Assembly: GCF_056746865.1 (NCBI RefSeq)
Contig: NZ_CM163382.1
Reading direction: 5' to 3' (one strand)
DNA length: 64,000 nt
The notes beneath the pieces were generated by a model. That model was given only the letters and a program-made list of their open reading frames with translations, was not told where the DNA came from and did no database searches. Positions within the stretch are counted from its first letter, which is position 1. Each line of letters starts with the position of its first letter. The translations under genes were made by a program, and so were the position numbers. Positions 39,797 to 52,322 of this stretch are shown here, piece by piece.

Positions 39797-39976
39797 AAGA
39801 AATCCTTTCTTAGAGAATTATTGAGGTCCGGTATCATACCGATTGCAATAATGAAATAAGAGCAAACGAAGAAACTTTCAGAATTAGGCCCGGCGGCGCA
39901 GAAAATTTTGCTATTCGCCTCGCAAGAACGGAGAGCCGTCGATTGACACTAAGGGCGGAGTGACATAATTTCAGGA

Positions 39977-40120
39977 GTGAGGGTTAGGGAGAGGTTTCCC
40001 CCTCCCCCTGGTGTTCTTAGTAAGCCTGGAAGCTAATCACTAAGAGTATCACCAGTATGATGACGTGCTTCATCATAACCCTTTCCTTATTAAAAGCCCT
40101 CTTCTCCGGGAGAGGGTTTC
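39977..40120 (+). ncRNA. sibA: Sib-family antisense sRNA (antitoxin of ibs copy 1); ends approximate
   Basis: Plus-strand TTGACA (39943-39948) with downstream -10-like cataat; GC hairpin gccctcttctccgggagagggt + T-run at ~40096-40120; fully covers the ibs ORF on the opposite strand. Confidence 0.5.
40017..40076 (-). CDS. ibsA: type I toxin Ibs family, 19 aa: MMKHVIILVILLVISFQAY
   Basis: Reverse complement of 40017-40076 translated by hand; hydrophobic Ibs-type peptide; too short for the ORF track. Confidence 0.8.
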   Translation of the reverse strand: MMKHVIILVILLVISFQAY

Positions 40121-40312
40121 CCGTTTCAGCGTCCCGCTGAAATCGTCGGCTTACCTCCTTTCGCCCTGAATGCAGTCTATCGCTAACGCGTGAACAAAAT
40201 AGTTTCCTCTGTGATTATTGCGTAACGACTCGCAAAGAATATTTGCTGGCAGGATCGCAGACTGCAAAGCCTGCAGATTGACAATCTTATCGTGAAGGCA
40301 TACTTTCAGGAG

Positions 40313-40446
40313 TGAGGGTAGAGCGGGGTTTCCCCCGCCCTGGTAGTCTTAGTATGCTGGGTAGCTAATCACTAAGAGCACCACGATGATGAGTATCTTC
40401 ATCATGACCCTTTCCTTATTTAAGGCCCCTTCCTCGGGAGGGGCTT
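40313..40446 (+). ncRNA. Sib-family antisense sRNA (copy 2); ends approximate
   Basis: TTGACA at 40278-40283, 17-nt spacer, -10-like tacttt; terminator hairpin ggccccttcctcgggaggggc + ttt at 40423-40446. Confidence 0.5.
40348..40404 (-). CDS. type I toxin Ibs family, 18 aa: MMKILIIVVLLVISYPAY
   Basis: Hand translation of reverse complement; IbsB-like. Confidence 0.75.
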
Positions 40447-40640
40447 TCCCGTTTCAGCGTCCCGCTAAAATCGTCGGCTTACCTCCTTTCGCCCTGAATG
40501 CAGTCTATCGCTAACGCGTGAACAAAATAGTTTCCTCTGTGATTATTGCGTAACGACTCGCAAAGAATATTTGCTGGCAGGATCGCAGACTGCAAAGCCT
40601 GCAGATTGACAATCTTATCGTGAAGGCATACTTTCAGGAG

Positions 40641-40775
40641 TGAGGGTAGAGCGGGGGTTCCCCCGCCCTGGTAGTCTTAGTAAGCCGGGAAGCTTATGAC
40701 TAAGAGCACCACGATGATGATCCACTTCATCATGACCCTTTCCTTATTTAAGGCCCCTTCCTCGGGAGGGGCTTT
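40641..40775 (+). ncRNA. Sib-family antisense sRNA (copy 3); ends approximate
   Basis: Same promoter and terminator architecture as copy 2 (TTGACA 40606-40611; hairpin ~40752-40775). Confidence 0.5.
40677..40733 (-). CDS. type I toxin Ibs family, 18 aa: MMKWIIIVVLLVISFPAY
   Basis: Hand translation of reverse complement; IbsB-like. Confidence 0.75.
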   Translation of the reverse strand: MMKWIIIVVLLVISFPAY

Positions 40776-40968
40776 CCCGTTTCAGCGTCCCGCTGAAATC
40801 ATCGGCTTACCTCCTTTCGCCCTGAATGCAGTCTATCGCTGACTTGCGGATAAAATAGTTTCACATGTGATTATTGTGTAACGTCTCGCAAAGAATATTT
40901 GCTGGCAGGATCGCAGACTGCAAAGCCTGCAGATTGACAATCTTATCGTGAAGGCATACTTTCAGGAG

Positions 40969-41103
40969 TGAGGGTAGAGCGGGGTTTCCCCCGCCCTGGT
41001 AGTCTTAGTATGCTGGGTAGCTAATCACTAAGAGCACCACGATGATGAGTAGCTTCATCATGACCCTTTCCTTATTTAAGGCCCCTTCCTCGGGAGGGGC
41101 TTT
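40969..41103 (+). ncRNA. Sib-family antisense sRNA (copy 4); ends approximate
   Basis: Same architecture (TTGACA 40934-40939; hairpin ~41080-41103). Confidence 0.5.
41005..41061 (-). CDS. type I toxin Ibs family, 18 aa: MMKLLIIVVLLVISYPAY
   Basis: Hand translation of reverse complement; IbsB-like. Confidence 0.75.
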   Translation of the reverse strand: MMKLLIIVVLLVISYPAY

Positions 41104-41268
41104 CCCGTTTCAGCGTCCCGCTGAAATCGTCGGCTTACCTCCTTTCGCCATGCAAGCAGTCTATCGCTAACGCGTAGATAAAATAGTTTCATGTGTTATT
41201 ACTGGATGCGTGCTCGCAAATGTGCCCGTCATTCAGACGATTCCCGACAGTGTTTCATAATTCCTCCA

Positions 41269-41286
41269 TTTTTCTCCCTTATTGGC
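41269..41286 (+). promoter_or_regulatory. BaeR-box-like site upstream of mdtA (tttttctcccttattggc), preceded by a similar half-site ttcctccatt
   Basis: Match by eye to the remembered BaeR consensus TTTTTCTCCATDATTGGC; ~55 nt upstream of the mdtA start. Confidence 0.5.
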
Positions 41287-41339
41287 TGGCTACACTAGTA
41301 TCATTCCGCGAAACGTTTCAGGAAGAGAAACTCTTAACG

Positions 41340-42587
41340 ATGAAAGGCAGTTATAAATCCCGTTGGGTAATCGTAATCGTGGTGGTTATCGCCGCCATCG
41401 CCGCATTCTGGTTCTGGCAAGGCCGCAATGACTCCCGGAGTGCAGCCCCAGGGGCGACGAAACAAGCGCAGCAATCGCCAGCGGGTGGTCGCCGTGGTAT
41501 GCGTTCCGGCCCATTAGCCCCGGTTCAGGCGGCGACCGCCGTAGAACAGGCAGTTCCGCGTTACCTCACCGGGCTTGGCACCATTACCGCCGCTAATACC
41601 GTTACGGTGCGCAGCCGCGTGGACGGCCAACTGATAGCGTTACATTTCCAGGAAGGCCAGCAGGTCAAAGCAGGCGATTTACTGGCAGAAATTGACCCAA
41701 GCCAGTTCAAAGTTGCATTAGCACAAGCCCAGGGCCAACTGGCAAAAGATAAAGCCACGCTTGCCAACGCCCGCCGTGACCTGGCGCGTTATCAACAACT
41801 GGTAAAAACCAATCTCGTATCTCGTCAGGAGCTGGATGCCCAACAGGCGCTGGTCAGTGAAACCGAAGGCACCATTAAGGCTGATGAAGCAAGCGTCGCC
41901 AGCGCGCAGCTGCAACTCGACTGGAGCCGCATCACCGCACCAGTCGATGGTCGCGTTGGTCTCAAGCAGGTTGATGTTGGTAACCAAATCTCCAGTGGTG
42001 ATACCACCGGGATTGTGGTGATCACCCAGACGCACCCTATCGATTTAGTCTTTACCCTGCCGGAAAGCGATATCGCTACCGTAGTACAGGCGCAAAAAGC
42101 CGGAAAACCGCTGGTTGTTGAAGCCTGGGATCGCACCAACTCGAAGAAATTAAGTGAAGGCACGCTGTTAAGCCTCGATAACCAAATCGATGCCACTACC
42201 GGTACGATTAAAGTGAAAGCACGCTTTAATAATCAGGATGATGCACTGTTTCCCAATCAGTTTGTTAACGCGCGTATGTTAGTCGACACCGAACAAAACG
42301 CCGTGGTGATCCCCACCGCCGCCCTGCAAATGGGCAATGAAGGCCATTTTGTCTGGGTGCTGAATAGCGAAAACAAGGTCAGCAAACATCTGGTGACGCC
42401 GGGCATTCAGGACAGTCAGAAAGTGGTGATCCGCGCAGGTATTTCTGCGGGCGACCGCGTAGTGACGGACGGAATTGATCGCCTGACCGAAGGGGCGAAA
42501 GTGGAAGTGGTAGAAGCTCAAAGCGCCACCACTTCGGAAGAGAAAGCCACCAGCCGCGAATACGCGAAAAAAGGAGCACGCTCCTGA
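41340..42587 (+). CDS. mdtA: RND efflux membrane fusion protein MdtA (415 aa)
   Basis: ORF track frame 41193..42587; start placed at ATG 41340 giving [23 protein letters not shown]. Confidence 0.9.
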
Positions 42588-45500
42588 TGCAGGTGTTACC
42601 CCCGAGCAGCACAGGCGGCCCGTCGCGCCTGTTTATTATGCGTCCTGTCGCCACCACGCTGCTGATGGTGGCGATCTTACTCGCCGGGATTATCGGTTAT
42701 CGTGCCCTGCCCGTTTCGGCGCTGCCGGAAGTGGACTATCCAACCATTCAGGTGGTCACCCTCTACCCAGGTGCCAGCCCAGATGTCATGACCTCTGCCG
42801 TTACCGCACCGCTCGAACGCCAGTTCGGGCAGATGTCCGGCCTGAAACAGATGTCGTCGCAAAGTTCCGGCGGTGCGTCAGTTATCACTTTGCAGTTCCA
42901 GCTAACATTACCGCTGGATGTCGCCGAGCAGGAAGTGCAGGCCGCGATTAACGCTGCGACCAACCTGTTGCCGAGCGATCTGCCTAACCCGCCGGTTTAC
43001 AGCAAAGTGAACCCGGCAGATCCGCCAATCATGACGCTCGCTGTCACCTCAACCGCCATGCCGATGACGCAAGTGGAAGATATGGTGGAAACCCGCGTCG
43101 CGCAGAAAATCTCGCAGATTTCCGGCGTCGGCCTGGTGACGCTTTCCGGCGGCCAGCGTCCGGCTGTTCGCGTCAAACTTAACGCCCAGGCGATTGCCGC
43201 CCTCGGCCTGACCAGCGAAACCGTGCGCACCGCCATTACCGGTGCTAACGTTAACTCGGCTAAAGGTAGCCTCGACGGCCCTTCCCGTGCGGTCACGCTT
43301 TCCGCGAACGACCAGATGCAATCCGCCGAAGAATATCGCCAGCTAATCATCGCCTACCAGAACGGCGCACCGATTCGTCTGGGCGATGTCGCAACCGTAG
43401 AGCAAGGTGCAGAAAATAGCTGGCTTGGGGCGTGGGCAAATAAAGAACAGGCCATTGTGATGAATGTTCAGCGCCAGCCCGGTGCTAACATTATCTCCAC
43501 CGCCGACAGCATCCGGCAGATGCTGCCACAGCTCACCGAGAGTCTGCCGAAATCGGTGAAGGTGACGGTACTTTCTGACCGTACCACCAATATCCGCGCA
43601 TCGGTCAACGATACCCAGTTTGAACTGATGATGGCTATCGCGCTGGTAGTCATGATTATCTACCTGTTTTTGCGCAATATTCCGGCGACCATCATTCCTG
43701 GCGTCGCAGTGCCGCTGTCGTTAATTGGCACCTTTGCGGTTATGGTGTTTCTCGATTTTTCAATCAATAACCTGACGCTGATGGCGTTAACTATCGCCAC
43801 CGGATTCGTGGTCGATGACGCCATCGTGGTGATCGAAAACATTTCCCGCTATATCGAAAAAGGCGAAAAACCGCTGGCGGCGGCGCTCAAAGGCGCAGGT
43901 GAAATCGGTTTTACCATTATCTCGCTGACCTTCTCACTGATTGCGGTGTTGATCCCACTGCTGTTTATGGGCGATATCGTCGGGCGACTGTTCCGCGAAT
44001 TTGCTATTACACTGGCGGTAGCGATTTTGATCTCAGCCGTGGTGTCGCTGACCCTGACGCCGATGATGTGCGCACGGATGCTCAGCCAGGAGTCGCTGCG
44101 TAAACAGAACCGCTTCTCCCGTGCCTCAGAGAAAATGTTCGAAAGGATAATCGCCGCCTATGGTCGCGGACTGGCGAAAGTGCTGAATCATCCGTGGCTG
44201 ACTTTAAGCGTAGCGCTCAGCACGCTGCTGCTTAGCGTTCTCTTGTGGGTGTTTATTCCGAAAGGTTTCTTCCCGGTACAGGACAACGGCATTATTCAGG
44301 GTACTTTGCAGGCACCGCAATCCAGCTCCTTTACCAATATGGCCCAGCGGCAACGCCAGGTCGCGGATGTGATTTTGCAGGATCCGGCAGTGCAAAGTCT
44401 GACCTCATTTGTTGGCGTTGATGGCACTAACCCGTCGCTGAACAGTGCGCGTTTGCAGATCAACCTCAAACCGTTGGATGAACGTGATGATCGGGTGCAA
44501 AAAGTCATCGCCCGTCTGCAAACGGCGGTGGATAAAGTGCCGGGCGTCGATCTCTTCCTGCAACCAACGCAGGACCTGACCATCGATACTCAGGTCAGCC
44601 GCACCCAGTACCAGTTTACCTTGCAGGCCACGTCACTGGATGCGCTCAGTACCTGGGTGCCACAGTTGATGGAAAAACTCCAGCAACTGCCACAGCTTTC
44701 TGATGTCTCCAGCGACTGGCAGGACAAAGGGCTGGTGGCGTATGTCAATGTTGATCGCGACAGCGCCAGCCGTCTGGGGATCAACATGGCGGATGTCGAT
44801 AACGCCCTGTACAACGCGTTTGGTCAGCGGCTGATTTCCACTATTTATACTCAGGCTAACCAGTATCGCGTGGTGCTGGAACACAACACTGAAAATACCC
44901 CAGGCCTCGCGGCGCTGGATACCATTCGCCTGACCAGCAGCGACGGTGGCGTGGTGCCGTTAAGCTCAATTGCCAAAATTGAGCAGCGTTTTGCGCCGCT
45001 CTCCATCAACCATCTGGATCAGTTCCCGGTAACGACCATCTCCTTTAACGTGCCAGATAACTATTCGCTGGGCGATGCGGTGCAGGCGATTATGGACACC
45101 GAAAAGACGCTGAATCTGCCGGTGGATATCACCACGCAGTTCCAGGGCAGCACCCTCGCCTTCCAGTCGGCGCTGGGCAGCACTGTCTGGCTGATTGTCG
45201 CGGCGGTGGTGGCGATGTATATCGTACTCGGCATTCTTTACGAAAGCTTTATTCACCCGATCACCATTCTCTCGACGTTGCCAACGGCAGGGGTCGGCGC
45301 ACTGCTGGCGTTGCTGATTGCCGGTAGCGAACTGGATGTAATCGCCATTATCGGCATTATTTTGCTGATCGGTATCGTGAAGAAGAACGCCATCATGATG
45401 ATCGACTTCGCGCTGGCTGCTGAGCGCGAGCAAGGCATGTCGCCGCGCGATGCAATCTACCAGGCTTGTCTGTTGCGTTTTCGTCCGATCCTGATGACTA

Positions 45501-45709
45501 CTCTGGCGGCTCTGCTTGGCGCGTTGCCGCTGATGTTAAGTACCGGGGTCGGCGCGGAACTGCGTCGTCCGTTAGGTATCGGCATGGTCGGCGGTCTGAT
45601 AGTCAGCCAGGTGCTGACGCTGTTTACCACGCCGGTGATTTATTTGCTGTTCGACCGCCTGGCATTGTGGACCAAAAGCCGCTTTGCTCGTCATGAAGAG
45701 GAGGCGTAA
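42587..45709 (+). CDS. mdtB: RND efflux permease MdtB (1040 aa)
   Basis: ORF track 1040 aa; AcrB-family; start overlaps mdtA stop by 1 nt (TGATG). Confidence 0.93.
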
Positions 45710-48700
45710 GTGAAGTTTTTTGCCCTCTTCATTTACCGCCCGGTGGCGACGATTTTACTGTCGGTCGCCATTACCCTGTGCGGCATACTGGGCTTCCGTA
45801 TGCTGCCGGTCGCCCCACTGCCGCAGGTCGATTTTCCGGTGATTATGGTCAGCGCCTCGCTGCCCGGTGCGTCACCAGAAACAATGGCGTCTTCCGTTGC
45901 CACGCCGCTGGAACGTTCGCTTGGGCGCATTGCCGGGGTCAGTGAAATGACCTCCAGCAGTTCGCTCGGCAGCACGCGCATTATTTTGCAGTTTGATTTT
46001 GACCGCGATATCAACGGCGCAGCGCGCGATGTGCAAGCGGCGATCAACGCCGCGCAAAGTTTGCTGCCCAGCGGGATGCCAAGCCGTCCGACCTATCGCA
46101 AAGCGAACCCGTCGGATGCGCCAATTATGATCCTGACGCTAACATCCGATACTTATTCGCAAGGTGAACTGTACGATTTTGCCTCGACGCAGCTGGCTCC
46201 GACGATTTCGCAAATCGACGGTGTCGGTGATGTCGATGTTGGCGGCAGCTCGCTACCTGCGGTGCGCGTCGGGCTGAACCCGCAGGCGCTGTTTAATCAG
46301 GGCGTCTCGCTGGACGACGTACGCACTGCCATCAGCAATGCCAACGTGCGTAAACCGCAAGGGGCGCTGGAAGATGGCACTCACCGCTGGCAGATCCAGA
46401 CTAACGATGAACTGAAAACTGCCGCTGAATATCAGCCGCTGATTATTCATTACAACAACGGCGGCGCGGTTCGTCTGGGCGATGTAGCGACGGTGACCGA
46501 CTCAGTGCAGGATGTGCGCAACGCCGGGATGACCAACGCCAAACCGGCTATTTTGCTGATGATCCGCAAGCTGCCGGAAGCCAATATTATCCAGACGGTA
46601 GACAGCATCCGGGCAAAATTACCGGAGTTGCAGGAAACCATTCCGGCGGCGATTGATCTGCAAATTGCTCAGGATCGCTCCCCCACCATTCGCGCCTCGC
46701 TGGAAGAAGTCGAGCAAACGCTGATTATCTCGGTGGCGCTGGTGATTCTGGTGGTCTTTTTATTCCTGCGCTCGGGTCGCGCCACTATTATTCCCGCCGT
46801 TGCGGTGCCGGTTTCGCTGATTGGTACGTTTGCGGCGATGTACCTGTGCGGATTCAGTCTCAATAATCTTTCGTTAATGGCGCTCACCATCGCTACTGGT
46901 TTCGTGGTGGATGACGCCATCGTGGTGCTGGAAAACATCGCCCGTCATCTGGAGGCGGGGATGAAACCGCTACAGGCCGCGCTGCAAGGCACTCGCGAAG
47001 TCGGTTTTACGGTGCTGTCGATGAGTCTGTCACTGGTGGCGGTGTTCCTGCCGCTGCTGTTGATGGGCGGATTGCCGGGCCGACTGTTACGCGAATTTGC
47101 CGTGACGCTTTCTGTCGCCATTGGGATTTCGTTGCTGGTTTCCCTGACGCTAACGCCGATGATGTGCGGCTGGATGCTAAAAGCCAGCAAGCCGCGCGAG
47201 CAAAAGCGACTACGTGGTTTTGGTCGCATGTTGGTAGCCCTGCAACAAGGCTATGGTAAGTCGCTGAAATGGGGGCTTAATCATACCCGTCTGGTGGGCG
47301 TGGTGTTGCTTGGCACCATTGCGCTGAATATCTGGCTATATATCTCGATCCCGAAAACCTTCTTCCCGGAGCAGGACACTGGCGTACTGATGGGCGGGAT
47401 ACAGGCGGATCAGAGTATTTCGTTTCAGGCGATGCGCGGCAAGTTGCAGGATTTTATGAAAATTATCCGTGACGATCCGGCGGTGGATAATGTCACCGGC
47501 TTTACCGGCGGTTCGCGGGTGAACAGTGGGATGATGTTTATCACCCTCAAGCCACACGACGAACGCAGCGAAACGGCGCAGCAAATTATCGACCGTCTGC
47601 GCGTAAAGCTGGCGAAAGAACCGGGGGCGAATCTGTTCCTGATGGCGGTACAGGATATTCGCGTTGGTGGGCGTCAGTCGAACGCCAGCTACCAGTACAC
47701 GTTGTTATCCGACGACCTGGCGGCACTGCGCGAATGGGAGCCGAAAATCCGCAAAAAACTGGCGACGTTGCCGGAACTGGCGGACGTGAACTCCGATCAG
47801 CAGGATAACGGCGCGGAGATGAATCTGGTTTACGACCGCGACACCATGGCACGGCTGGGAATCGACGTGCAGGCCGCCAACAGCCTGTTAAATAACGCCT
47901 TCGGTCAGCGGCAGATCTCGACCATTTACCAGCCGATGAACCAGTATAAAGTGGTGATGGAAGTGGATCCGCGCTATACCCAGGACATCAGTGCGCTGGA
48001 AAAAATGTTCGTTATCAATAACGAAGGAAAAGCGATCCCGCTGTCGTATTTCGCTAAATGGCAACCGGCGAATGCTCCGCTGTCGGTGAATCATCAGGGA
48101 TTATCGGCAGCCTCGACCATTTCGTTTAACCTGCCGACCGGGAAATCGCTCTCGGACGCCAGTGCGGCGATCGATCGCGCAATGACCCAGCTTGGTGTGC
48201 CTTCGACGGTACGCGGCAGTTTTGCCGGCACGGCGCAGGTGTTCCAGGAGACGATGAACTCGCAGGTGATTCTGATTATCGCCGCCATCGCCACGGTGTA
48301 TATCGTGCTGGGTATCCTTTACGAGAGTTACGTACATCCGCTGACGATTCTCTCCACCCTGCCCTCGGCGGGCGTTGGAGCGCTGCTGGCGCTGGAGCTG
48401 TTCAATGCCCCGTTCAGCCTAATCGCCCTGATAGGGATCATGCTATTAATCGGCATCGTGAAGAAAAACGCCATTATGATGGTCGATTTTGCGCTTGAAG
48501 CCCAACGGCACGGTAACCTGACGCCGCAGGAAGCTATTTTCCAGGCCTGTCTGCTGCGTTTTCGCCCGATTATGATGACTACCCTGGCGGCGCTGTTTGG
48601 TGCGCTGCCGCTGGTGTTGTCGGGCGGTGACGGCTCGGAGCTGCGCCAACCCCTGGGGATCACCATTGTCGGCGGTCTGGTAATGAGCCAGCTTCTGACG

Positions 48701-48787
48701 CTGTATACCACGCCGGTGGTGTATCTCTTTTTCGACCGTCTGCGGCTGCGTTTTTCGCGTAAACCTAAACAAACGGTAACAGAGTAA
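45710..48787 (+). CDS. mdtC: RND efflux permease MdtC (1025 aa, GTG start)
   Basis: ORF track 1025 aa; GTG immediately after the mdtB stop (TAAGTG). Confidence 0.93.
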
Positions 48788-50203
48788 ATGACAGATCTTC
48801 CCGACAACACCCGCTGGCAATTGTGGATTGTGGCTTTCGGCTTCTTTATGCAGTCGCTGGACACCACCATCGTCAACACCGCGCTTCCCTCAATGGCGCA
48901 AAGCCTCGGGGAAAGTCCGTTGCATATGCACATGGTCATTGTCTCTTATGTGCTGACCGTGGCGGTGATGTTGCCTGCCAGCGGCTGGCTGGCGGACAAA
49001 GTCGGCGTGCGCAATATTTTCTTTACCGCCATCGTGCTGTTTACTCTCGGTTCACTATTTTGCGCACTTTCCGGCACGCTGAACGAACTGTTGCTGGCAC
49101 GCGCGTTACAGGGCGTTGGCGGTGCGATGATGGTGCCGGTCGGCAGGTTGACGGTGATGAAAATCGTACCGCGCGAGCAATATATGGCGGCGATGACCTT
49201 TGTCACGTTACCCGGTCAGGTCGGTCCGCTGCTCGGTCCGGCGCTCGGCGGCCTGCTGGTGGAGTACGCGTCGTGGCACTGGATCTTTTTGATCAACATT
49301 CCGGTGGGAATTATCGGCGCGATCGCCACACTAATGTTAATGCCGAACTACACCATGCAGACGCGGCGCTTCGATCTCTCCGGCTTTTTATTGCTGGCGA
49401 TTGGCATGGCGGTATTAACCCTGGCGCTGGATGGCAGTAAAGGTACAGGTTTATCGCCGCTGGCGATTACTGGCCTGGTCGCTGTTGGCGTGGTAGCACT
49501 GGTGCTTTATCTGCTGCACGCCAGAAATAACAACCGCGCTCTTTTCAGTCTGAAACTGTTCCGCACTCGTACCTTTTCGCTGGGCCTGGCGGGGAGTTTT
49601 GCCGGACGTATCGGTAGCGGCATGTTGCCCTTTATGACACCGGTTTTCCTGCAAATTGGCCTTGGCTTCTCACCGTTTCATGCCGGACTGATGATGATCC
49701 CGATGGTGCTCGGCAGCATGGGGATGAAGCGAATTGTGGTACAGGTAGTGAATCGCTTTGGTTATCGTCGGGTACTGGTGGCAACCACGCTGGGTCTGTC
49801 GCTGGTCACCCTGTTGTTTATGACTACCGCTCTGCTGGGCTGGTACTACGTTTTGCCGTTCGTCCTGTTTTTACAAGGGATGGTCAACTCGACGCGTTTC
49901 TCCTCCATGAACACCCTGACGCTGAAAGATCTCCCGGACAATCTGGCGAGCAGCGGCAATAGTCTGCTGTCGATGATTATGCAATTGTCGATGAGTATCG
50001 GCGTCACCATCGCCGGGCTGTTGCTGGGACTTTTTGGTTCGCAGCATGTCAGCGTCGACAGCGGCACCACACAAACCGTCTTTATGTACACCTGGCTTAG
50101 CATGGCGTTTATCATCGCCCTTCCGGCGTTCATCTTTGCCAGAGTGCCGAACGATACGCATCAAAATGTAGCTATTTCGCGGCGAAAAAGGAGCGCGCAA
50201 TGA
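48788..50203 (+). CDS. mdtD: MFS transporter MdtD (471 aa)
   Basis: ORF track 471 aa; polytopic; ATG immediately after the mdtC stop. Confidence 0.9.
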
Positions 50204-51603
50204 AGTTCTGGCGACCCGGTATTACCGGCAAACTGTTTCTGGCGATTTTCGCCACCTGCATTGTCTTGCTGATCAGTATGCACTGGGCGGTGCGTATCAG
50301 TTTTGAGCGTGGCTTTATTGATTACATCAAGCATGGTAATGAACAGCGATTACAACTGTTAAGTGATGCGCTTGGCGAGCAGTATGCGCAGCATGGCAAC
50401 TGGCGCTTCCTGCGCAACAATGATCGCTTTGTCTTTCAGATCTTGCGTTCATTTGAACACGATAATTCGGAAGATAAACCCGGCCCGGGTATGCCGCCGC
50501 ACGGCTGGCGTACCCAGTTCTGGGTGGTCGATCAAAACAACAAAGTGCTGGTTGGTCCGCGAGCGCCGATTCCACCTGACGGTACACGGCGACCCATTCT
50601 GGTCAACGGTGCGGAAGTGGGTGCGGTGATTGCCTCCCCTGTTGAGCGACTGACCCGCAATACTGATATCAATTTCGATAAACAACAGCGGCAAACCAGC
50701 TGGCTGATTGTTGCTCTGGCAACGTTACTCGCGGCACTCGCTACCTTTCTGCTGGCGCGTGGTTTGCTGGCACCGGTAAAACGGCTGGTGGACGGCACGC
50801 ACAAACTGGCGGCGGGCGATTTCACTACCCGCGTAACGCCCACCAGTGAAGATGAACTGGGCAAACTGGCGCAAGACTTCAACCAGCTTGCCAGCACGCT
50901 GGAGAAAAACCAGCAAATGCGGCGCGATTTTATGGCCGATATTTCTCACGAACTGCGTACGCCATTAGCGGTGCTGCGCGGTGAACTGGAAGCCATTCAG
51001 GATGGCGTGCGTAAATTCACGCCGGAGACGGTGGCGTCTTTACAGGCGGAGGTCGGTACACTGACCAAACTGGTTGACGATCTCCATCAGTTGTCGATGT
51101 CTGATGAAGGCGCTCTCGCCTATCAAAAAGCACCGGTAGATTTGATCCCACTGCTGGAAGTGGCGGGCGGCGCATTTCGCGAACGATTCGCCAGCCGTGG
51201 CCTGAAACTGCAATTTTCCCTGCCAGACAGTATTACCGTATTTGGCGATCGCGACCGTTTAATGCAGTTATTCAATAACTTACTGGAAAACAGCCTGCGC
51301 TACACTGACAGCGGCGGTAGCCTGAAAATCTCTGCCGGGCAGCACGACAAAACGGTGCGACTGACCTTTGCCGACAGCGCGCCGGGCGTCAGTGACGATC
51401 AGCTACAAAAATTGTTTGAACGTTTTTATCGCACCGAAGGTTCCCGCAACCGAGCCAGCGGCGGTTCCGGGCTGGGGCTGGCGATTTGCCTGAACATTGT
51501 TGAAGCACATAATGGTCGCATTATTGCTGCCCATTCGCCTTTTGGCGGGGTAAGCATTACAGTAGAGTTACCGCTGGAACGGGATTTACAGAGAGAAGTA
51601 TGA
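50200..51603 (+). CDS. baeS: envelope-stress sensor histidine kinase BaeS (467 aa)
   Basis: ORF track 467 aa; H-box [11 protein letters not shown]; 4-nt overlap with mdtD. Confidence 0.92.
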
Positions 51604-52322
51604 CCGAGTTACCAATCGACGAAAACACACCGCGTATTTTGATCGTGGAAGATGAACCGAAGCTGGGACAGTTGCTCATTGATTATCTGCGTGCTGCGAG
51701 CTATGCGCCGACGCTTATCAGCCACGGCGATCAGGTACTGCCGTATGTGCGCCAGACACCACCGGATCTGATCCTGTTGGATCTGATGCTCCCTGGCACC
51801 GATGGCTTGACGCTGTGCCGGGAAATTCGTCGTTTTTCTGACATTCCTATCGTGATGGTGACGGCAAAAATAGAAGAGATCGACCGCCTGCTCGGACTGG
51901 AGATTGGCGCAGATGATTATATCTGTAAGCCGTACAGCCCACGGGAAGTGGTAGCGCGCGTCAAAACCATTTTGCGCCGTTGCAAACCGCAGCGTGAGTT
52001 GCAGCAACAGGATGCTGAAAGCCCGTTGATTATCGACGAAGGTCGTTTTCAGGCTTCATGGCGCGGTAAAATGCTTGACCTGACGCCTGCGGAATTTCGT
52101 CTGCTGAAAACGCTCTCTCATGAACCAGGAAAAGTGTTCTCCCGCGAGCAATTGCTCAATCATCTTTATGACGACTACCGCGTAGTAACCGACCGCACCA
52201 TCGACAGCCACATTAAAAACCTGCGCCGCAAGCTGGAATCTCTCGACGCCGAACAGTCCTTTATCCGTGCCGTTTACGGCGTCGGTTACCGCTGGGAAGC
52301 CGACGCCTGCCGCATCGTTTAA
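51600..52322 (+). CDS. baeR: OmpR-family response regulator BaeR (240 aa)
   Basis: ORF track 240 aa; receiver domain ([23 protein letters not shown]) + winged-helix C-terminus; 4-nt overlap with baeS. Confidence 0.93.

Follow-up and report, generated by a model that had tools for sequence, protein, structure and literature searches.

The BaeR site of the mdtA promoter has featured in publications and regulatory databases for some two decades. The 18-bp BaeR consensus TTTTTCTCCATDATTGGC was, as we take it, derived from three promoters, those of mdtA, spy and acrD. The best described arrangement of this general kind is the Pho box, where PhoB acts as a class II activator: tandem direct repeats with a period of 10-11 bp replace the -35 element and end approximately 10 bp before the -10 element. 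Two other regulators of efflux pumps that belong to the BaeR subfamily, AdeR of Acinetobacter baumannii and DzrR of Dickeya and Burkholderia, also recognize direct repeats with the same core. In DNase I footprints, DzrR protects CGGTTCTCCATCATATCTCCATATT, which contains two CTCCAT repeats in the arrangement CTCCAT-N5-CTCCAT, and AdeR has been co-crystallized on AAGTGTGGAG-N-AAGTGTGGAG, the reverse complement of which is CTCCACACTT-N-CTCCACACTT. For BaeR itself, we used TTTTTCTCCATDATTGGC (Nishino et al. 2005) in the form in which it is quoted in PMC3799227 and PMC3915751.

The window analysed here, a stretch of 64,000 nucleotides of an E. coli chromosome, contains, in this order, pphC, yegL, four sib/ibs units and the mdtABCD-baeSR operon. 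The segment 41100-41400 is 100% identical to the corresponding region of strain CFSAN061770 and was found in 5416 of the 5426 complete E. coli genomes. The genes of the operon are all located on the plus strand: mdtA (41340-42587; RefSeq annotation, NF008589 equivalog, 721 bits); mdtB (42587-45709) and mdtC (45710-48787), both matching NCBIfam equivalogs above the cut-off; mdtD (48788-50203), matching an NCBIfam subfamily model above the cut-off; and baeS (50200-51603) and baeR (51600-52322), the genes of an autoregulated two-component system (equivalogs NF007837, 931 bits, and NF007982, 451 bits, respectively). The start codon of mdtA is the conserved ATG at 41340 (MKGSYKSRW...). The GTG start at 41193 that appears in a mechanical list of open reading frames (464 aa) was rejected as an open-frame artefact running through the promoter. 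Window positions were obtained from K-12 positions by subtracting 2112676 from the NC_000913.3 coordinate, and the mapping of peaks is good to about 1 nt.

The 18-mer TTTTTCTCCCTTATTGGC (that is, tttttctcccttattggc) occupies positions 41269-41286 on the plus strand, exactly where the sequence-only reading had placed it upstream of mdtA, and is a BaeR box of the published type. The gap between the 18-mer and the mdtA ATG is 53 nt, close to the ~55 nt originally estimated. Compared with the consensus as quoted in the two papers mentioned above, the 18-mer agrees at 17 of the 18 positions, with one mismatch, in line with the proposed resemblance to the BaeR recognition sequence. Allowing at most one mismatch to the consensus in this quoted form, the 18-mer is the single match on both strands of the 64-kb window, and none of the 100 dinucleotide shuffles contains a match, although this statistic is partly circular and not independent, because the mdtA promoter is presumably among the three behind the consensus. 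The decamer ttcctccatt (41261-41270) precedes the 18-mer with an overlap of two bases. The sequence-only reading considered this decamer to be related to the 18-mer, and rightly so: TTCCTCCATT and TTTCTCCCTT are alike at 8 of 10 positions at an offset of 10 bp, and of the two copies, the upstream one has the better core (CTCCAT) and is conserved more strongly.

At this site, we infer three half-sites on the plus strand. R2 (CTCCAT, 41264-41269) is the best-conserved core and is the same as the core of the spy box and of the DzrR sites; R3 (CTCCCT, 41274-41279), the core of the 18-mer, follows 10 bp after R2; and R1 (TTTCAT, 41253-41258; TTCCAT in many genera) lies 11 bp before R2. The half-site starts, 41253, 41264 and 41274, are thus spaced as direct repeats, by 11 and 10 bp. 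The most plausible reading of the site is a tandem of CTCC(A/C)T repeats, spaced by 10 bp, that overlap the missing -35 element. The -10 element would be either TACACT (41291-41296) or TAGTAT (41296-41301). If TACACT is the -10, a spacing of 17 bp leads to ATTTTT as the upstream hexamer, and the mdtA promoter is therefore devoid of a -35 element; R2-R3 end 11 bp before TACACT, and the 18-mer ends 4 nt before it. The position of the transcription start and the promoter geometry are predicted from this arrangement. No mdtA transcription start was found in the Cappable-seq supplements or in a full-text literature search.

Evidence for BaeR at this site that does not depend on the consensus comes from E. 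coli K-12. Between 41080 and 41345, the window differs from K-12 MG1655 at only two positions, 41191 and 41245, both off the site, and from 41246 to the mdtA ATG the two sequences are identical. In the BaeR ChIP-exo data for MG1655, two peaks were reported upstream of mdtA, and these have the two highest signal-to-noise ratios in the BaeR data set (PMC7657598, Data Set S2). One of these (peak_5; K-12 2153931-2153967, window 41255-41291; S/N 10.96) spans the whole 18-mer together with the related preceding decamer. The other (peak_6; K-12 2153972-2153998, window 41296-41322; S/N 14.99) spans the -10, start-site and early leader region, and would correspond to the polymerase-proximal part of the complex. 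Thus, the occupancy of the site by BaeR in vivo is documented on an identical sequence. The operon that begins 53 nt downstream of the site, with mdtBCD, baeS and baeR following mdtA, responds to BaeR: in 5% ethanol, deletion of baeR changed the expression of mdtA by log2 -4.0 (16-fold), mdtB by -3.8 and mdtC by -3.6, and in uninduced cells mdtA (log2 0.07), mdtB and mdtC were unchanged (PMC7657598).

These data, together with the profile matches for MdtA, MdtB, MdtC, MdtD, BaeS and BaeR, agree with the description of the locus in the sequence-only reading as the autoregulated mdtABCD-baeSR operon. Neither of the two outcomes that this reading had named as contradicting it, the lack of BaeR binding and promoter activity independent of the site, is observed in the published K-12 data. 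Given that the promoter is identical to that of K-12, that the ChIP-exo peaks are the top ones and that the effect of baeR is 16-fold, the identification of the BaeR box is right and already known. In other words, the 18-mer is the BaeR box already described for the mdtA promoter, and the finding is correct but ordinary. Only two things are added here: a cross-genus footprint, which moves the constrained core upstream of the canonical 18-mer by 10 bp, and a record of a weak 3' end, attributed to read-through, that lies between Sib and the promoter.

We consider it very probable that the site is the BaeR operator of a sigma-70 promoter of mdtABCD-baeSR. Under this model, phosphorylated BaeR, a regulator of the OmpR/PhoB family encoded at the end of the operon, would bind head-to-tail to R2 and R3, with R1 acting as a weaker BaeR repeat. 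The R2 and R3 repeats would stand in for the missing -35 element upstream of the conserved -10 block TACACT, and BaeR, as one dimer or more, would recruit RNA polymerase, presumably through a class-II-type contact, and switch the pump on. BaeR would also amplify its own synthesis through mdtABCD-baeSR; because baeSR close the operon, activation is expected to raise the level of BaeR itself. The site matters for antibiotic tolerance because it controls a multidrug and metal efflux pump along with a positive feedback loop of the envelope stress response.

Within E. coli, the 65-bp core of the promoter (41246-41310) was found in 5416 of the 5426 complete genomes, with 4479 records at 99% identity or higher and the other 938 at 95-99%. 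The common variants in the sampled genomes map to positions 41229, 41245 and 41248, all upstream of the repeats. One record, NZ_CP026085.1 (4.83 Mb, labelled DH5alpha), carries a T to G change within the BaeR box, at the position corresponding to 41272, as well as a T to C change at 41304 and the non-K-12 variants at 41229 and 41248; this record is probably mislabelled or error-prone.

To delineate the footprint across genera, the mdtA loci of 80 species from approximately 25 genera of Enterobacteriaceae were compared by aligning the 150 nt before the ATG, and identity to the window was computed for the 57 species outside Escherichia and Citrobacter. Four blocks on the plus strand stand out: GTTTCATAATTCCTCCATTTTTC (41252-41274; identity 0.88), which includes ttcctccatt; the -10 block TACACTAGTATCATT (41291-41305; 0.93); the 22-bp upstream block CATTCAGACGATTCCCGACAGT (41230-41251; 0.76-0.93); and the leader block TTCAGGAAGAGAA (41317-41329; 0.88-1.00). 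For comparison, the identity is 0.43 in the variable spacer (41275-41290) and 0.32 in the far-upstream background (41190-41229). The boundary of conservation runs through the 18-mer, the 5' end of which (41269-41274) is conserved, along with the adjoining upstream copy, at 0.88-0.94, whereas the twelve bases at its 3' end (41275-41286) show an identity of 0.36. Because the latter value, for species other than Escherichia and Citrobacter, is near the background, the essential unit at this promoter may not coincide with the 18-mer in its present limits. The stretches 41252-41274 and 41291-41305 are nearly invariant and the one between them varies, as would be expected for an activator site combined with a -10 element. 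R2 is CTCCAT in 74 of the 80 promoters, compared to only 20, all from the Escherichia or Citrobacter group, in which R3 is CTCCCT; thus, ttcctccatt is the more constrained copy. R1 is TTTCAT or TTCCAT in nearly all 80 promoters.

The CATTCAGACGATTCCCGACAGT block is retained across the ~25 genera, including species without Sib, and lies outside the BaeR ChIP-exo peak; a second regulator and a basal promoter are both possibilities for its function. CpxR is one regulator that is reported to act at the mdtA promoter. The K-12 CpxR ChIP-exo data show no peak at mdtA. A search of the window for the CpxR box GTAAA-N5-GTAAA with up to three mismatches returned 499 matches, which is too permissive to be informative, so that no CpxR site was assigned. 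The TTCAGGAAGAGAA leader block, nearly invariant in the 80 species, is probably the ribosome-binding region; it is followed by 10 variable nucleotides and then the ATG, which is rather far for a Shine-Dalgarno sequence.

Immediately upstream of the promoter region lies the sib/ibs array (39943-41220, plus strand), which consists of four units with a 328-bp period; the repeat homology stops at 41220. The array corresponds to the sibA/sibB locus of K-12, with four units between yegL and mdtA here versus two in K-12, and is a neighbour of the BaeR site rather than a part of it. The copy number of sib is polymorphic, given that the number of places found by a query with the repeat tail ranges from 1 to 7 among E. 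coli genomes, with a median of 2. The Rfam model SIB_RNA (RF00113), which has a gathering score of 56, matches four times at 137.8-149.5 bits, and antisense ibs ORFs are annotated in the identical strain CFSAN061770. The last Sib RNA, the equivalent of sibB, occupies 40970-41105 on the plus strand, as mapped from the K-12 annotation (Rfam match 40934-41076), and the last ibs toxin ORF, antisense to Sib, is located at 41005-41061 on the minus strand, as mapped from the RefSeq annotation of CFSAN061770. The possibility that the mdtA promoter itself is a degenerate fifth Sib unit was considered and rejected: the local alignment score was 17, against 15.1 +/- 2.0 for the null, and 97 of the 500 shuffles scored at least as high.

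The annotated 3' end of K-12 sibB maps to 41105, 164 nt before the 18-mer, in agreement with the distance of ~170 bp given in the sequence-only reading for the last Sib terminator. After the last Sib hairpin (41078-41103; -19.3 kcal/mol) comes a weak U tract, UCCCGUUUC, and a scan for consensus terminators did not call this hairpin terminator-like. In the Term-seq data for K-12, the dominant SibB 3' end is at 2153749 (41073), before the hairpin, with a score of ~490,000 (PMC7815308). A minor plus-strand 'orphan' 3' end at 2153897 (41221) scored 789 under one and 1217 under another of the three conditions (PMC7815308, Supplementary file 1), that is, ~0.16-0.25% of the SibB 3'-end signal. Position 41221 is the exact stop of the 328-bp repeat homology and is directly preceded by a small hairpin, TGCG-TGCT-CGCA, followed by AAT (41207-41221, plus strand). 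A TTGCG-N8-CGCAA hairpin is found at the equivalent place in related species and in internal Sib units. The 41221 end may mark trimmed Sib read-through transcripts, and given this minor 3' end in K-12, some, small read-through past the Sib hairpin exists. The dominant SibA and SibB 3' ends of K-12 (2153420 and 2153749) fall within the sRNAs as annotated and face the ribosome-binding region of ibs; because they precede the strong terminal hairpin, the major Sib species is ~104 nt long, not 136-144 nt as annotated.

Farther downstream, a Rho (bicyclomycin-sensitive) termination region has been mapped in uninduced cells to 2154517 (41841), within mdtA (Adams et al. 2021, PMC7815308). This region lies ~500 nt into the gene and suggests premature termination of basal or read-through mdtA transcripts; it is not attributable to one transcript because its 800-nt upstream counting window takes in the SibB ends. 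Among the 80 species, 33 (Escherichia, Citrobacter, Pseudocitrobacter, Kluyvera, Yokenella and a few others) have a Sib unit that ends ~235 nt before the mdtA ATG, and the other 47 lack Sib. The blocks of the mdtA promoter are equally conserved in these 47 species, and the promoter therefore does not need Sib. A literature search for sibB together with mdtA retrieved co-mentions only, none of which concerned regulation or a functional link.

Against this background, several alternatives to the operator model, or modifications of it, have to be weighed. The essential, ancestral BaeR target might be R1-R2 (41253-41269), with the 18-mer being a later, overlapping copy of the Escherichia/Citrobacter lineage, displaced by one helical turn towards the promoter, that merely strengthens the binding. 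We regard this refinement as a possibility to be taken seriously, albeit one that is more doubtful than probable. It accommodates the contrast between R2 (74/80) and R3 (20/80), the presence of (T/C)T(T/C)CAT at R1 in nearly all promoters and the drop in identity in other genera from 0.88 (41252-41274) to 0.36 (41275-41286). Furthermore, an 18-mer anchored at R2 (41259-41276) would end 14 nt before the -10, a spacing equal to that between the acrD box and TACAGT, and a gain-of-function change in BaeS induces mdtA (log2 3.7) in Klebsiella, where the promoters contain neither R3 nor ATTGGC. However, three E. coli promoters that are unrelated share TTTTTCTCC...ATTGGC in nearly identical form, which argues that BaeR of E. 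coli does contact ATTGGC, and the upstream ChIP-exo peak reaches 41291, covering the entire 18-mer. A different geometry altogether would follow if TTCAGA (41232-41237)-18-CATAAT (41256-41261), a 9/12 match that is the sole sigma-70-like one in 39800-41500, were the real promoter, placing the BaeR box at or after the start site. Both hexamers lie inside conserved blocks, and the -35-like half of the match overlaps the CATTCAGACGATTCCCGACAGT block, but shuffled sequences would be expected to give 1.6 matches, more than the one observed, and in most genera CATAAT is replaced with CATATT. Moreover, BaeR activates mdtA, whereas positions +1 to +18 are those of a repressor; ChIP-exo peak_6 is located downstream, at 41296-41322; and the invariant downstream TA(A/C)ACTAGTATCATT would be left unexplained, all of which makes this geometry very improbable. 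As for a chance resemblance to the consensus with no regulatory role, nothing speaks for it beyond the frequency of short T/C-rich motifs in intergenic DNA. The absence of matches at up to one mismatch in the 100 shuffles, the BaeR occupancy in vivo and the BaeR-dependent expression have already refuted it, the conservation of the site also speaks against it, and we assign it a negligible likelihood.

The remaining alternative concerns the neighbourhood of the BaeR operator. Sib read-through might reach the mdtA promoter and either interfere with it or supply BaeR-independent basal transcription. The last Sib hairpin with its poor U tract, the 41221 end located 116 nt past the annotated sibB end with no promoter-like match in between, the Rho termination region at 41841 and the BaeR-independence of mdtA mRNA in uninduced cells (log2 0.07) are all compatible with such a leak, as is the constant distance of ~235 nt in the 33 Sib-bearing species. 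Vertical inheritance of the repeat tail is, however, a simple explanation of this distance; the signal at 41221 is minute relative to that of SibB and is separated from the conserved BaeR block downstream by 31 nt; K-12, with the same arrangement, shows normal BaeR induction; and the promoter is no less conserved in the 47 species without Sib. Thus, any effect of Sib on the mdtA promoter is speculative, and we consider this explanation improbable. For R1-R2 binding-site turnover and a Sib leak feeding basal transcription of the operon, assessed jointly, our overall estimate is that they are unlikely. If turnover did occur, it would have given the mdtA promoter, previously similar to acrD in its geometry, a tighter arrangement that overlaps the -35 region. 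If the leak is real, the Sib RNA, abundant and constitutively produced, would pass its weak terminator, and this Rho-trimmed read-through would provide BaeR-independent basal transcription of mdtABCD-baeSR and set the resting level of BaeS and BaeR, and the fixed sib-to-mdtA spacing in 33 of the 80 species would have a function.

Apart from these alternatives, the footprint marks the constrained bases of the promoter, namely, the upstream CTCCAT copy, the -10 block, the 22-bp upstream block and the leader block, and could help to refine the BaeR motif models with which regulons are predicted in Klebsiella, Enterobacter and other genera. The papers on mdtA in Erwinia and Photorhabdus report no mapped BaeR site for this gene.

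The closest counterparts of the mdtA box are the other two boxes bound by the same regulator, those of spy (TTTTTCTCCATAATTGGC, no mismatches to the consensus) and acrD (TTTTTCTCCACGATTGGC, one mismatch). In the acrD promoter, too, a CTCC repeat precedes the core of the box, at a distance of 11 bp, but this promoter differs in the placement of the box, which ends 14 nt before TACAGT, compared to 4 nt before the -10-like hexamer in mdtA. The spy box, unlike that of mdtA, lies ~80-100 bp upstream of the promoter. Also unlike mdtA, the spy 18-mer (K-12 1825764-1825781) is outside both spy ChIP-exo peaks, and because these peaks miss a perfect 18-mer, ChIP-exo peaks and the 18-mer are not always congruent. 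One of the spy peaks (1825677-1825711) covers the core promoter, and the other (1825823-1825843) covers TCTGCAAAA, which fits the alternative motif TCTNCANAA. It may be that the contacts described by one of the two published motifs for BaeR are not those described by the other.

Beyond the BaeR regulon, R2-R3 of mdtA (41264-41279), ending 11 bp before TACACT, resemble the Pho box in their placement, whereas the half-sites differ, CTCCAT for BaeR versus CTGTCAT for PhoB, and the BaeR encoded in the window scores 216 bits against the PhoB model TIGR02154, below its cut-off of 296. The same protein matches the AdeR model with E = 6e-45. The AdeR and DzrR sites have a period of 11 bp, compared to 10 bp between R2 and R3 of mdtA, and the AdeR site is intercistronic, in contrast to the promoter site of mdtA. 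DzrR appears to be phosphorylation-independent, unlike the phosphorylated BaeR of our preferred model for mdtA.
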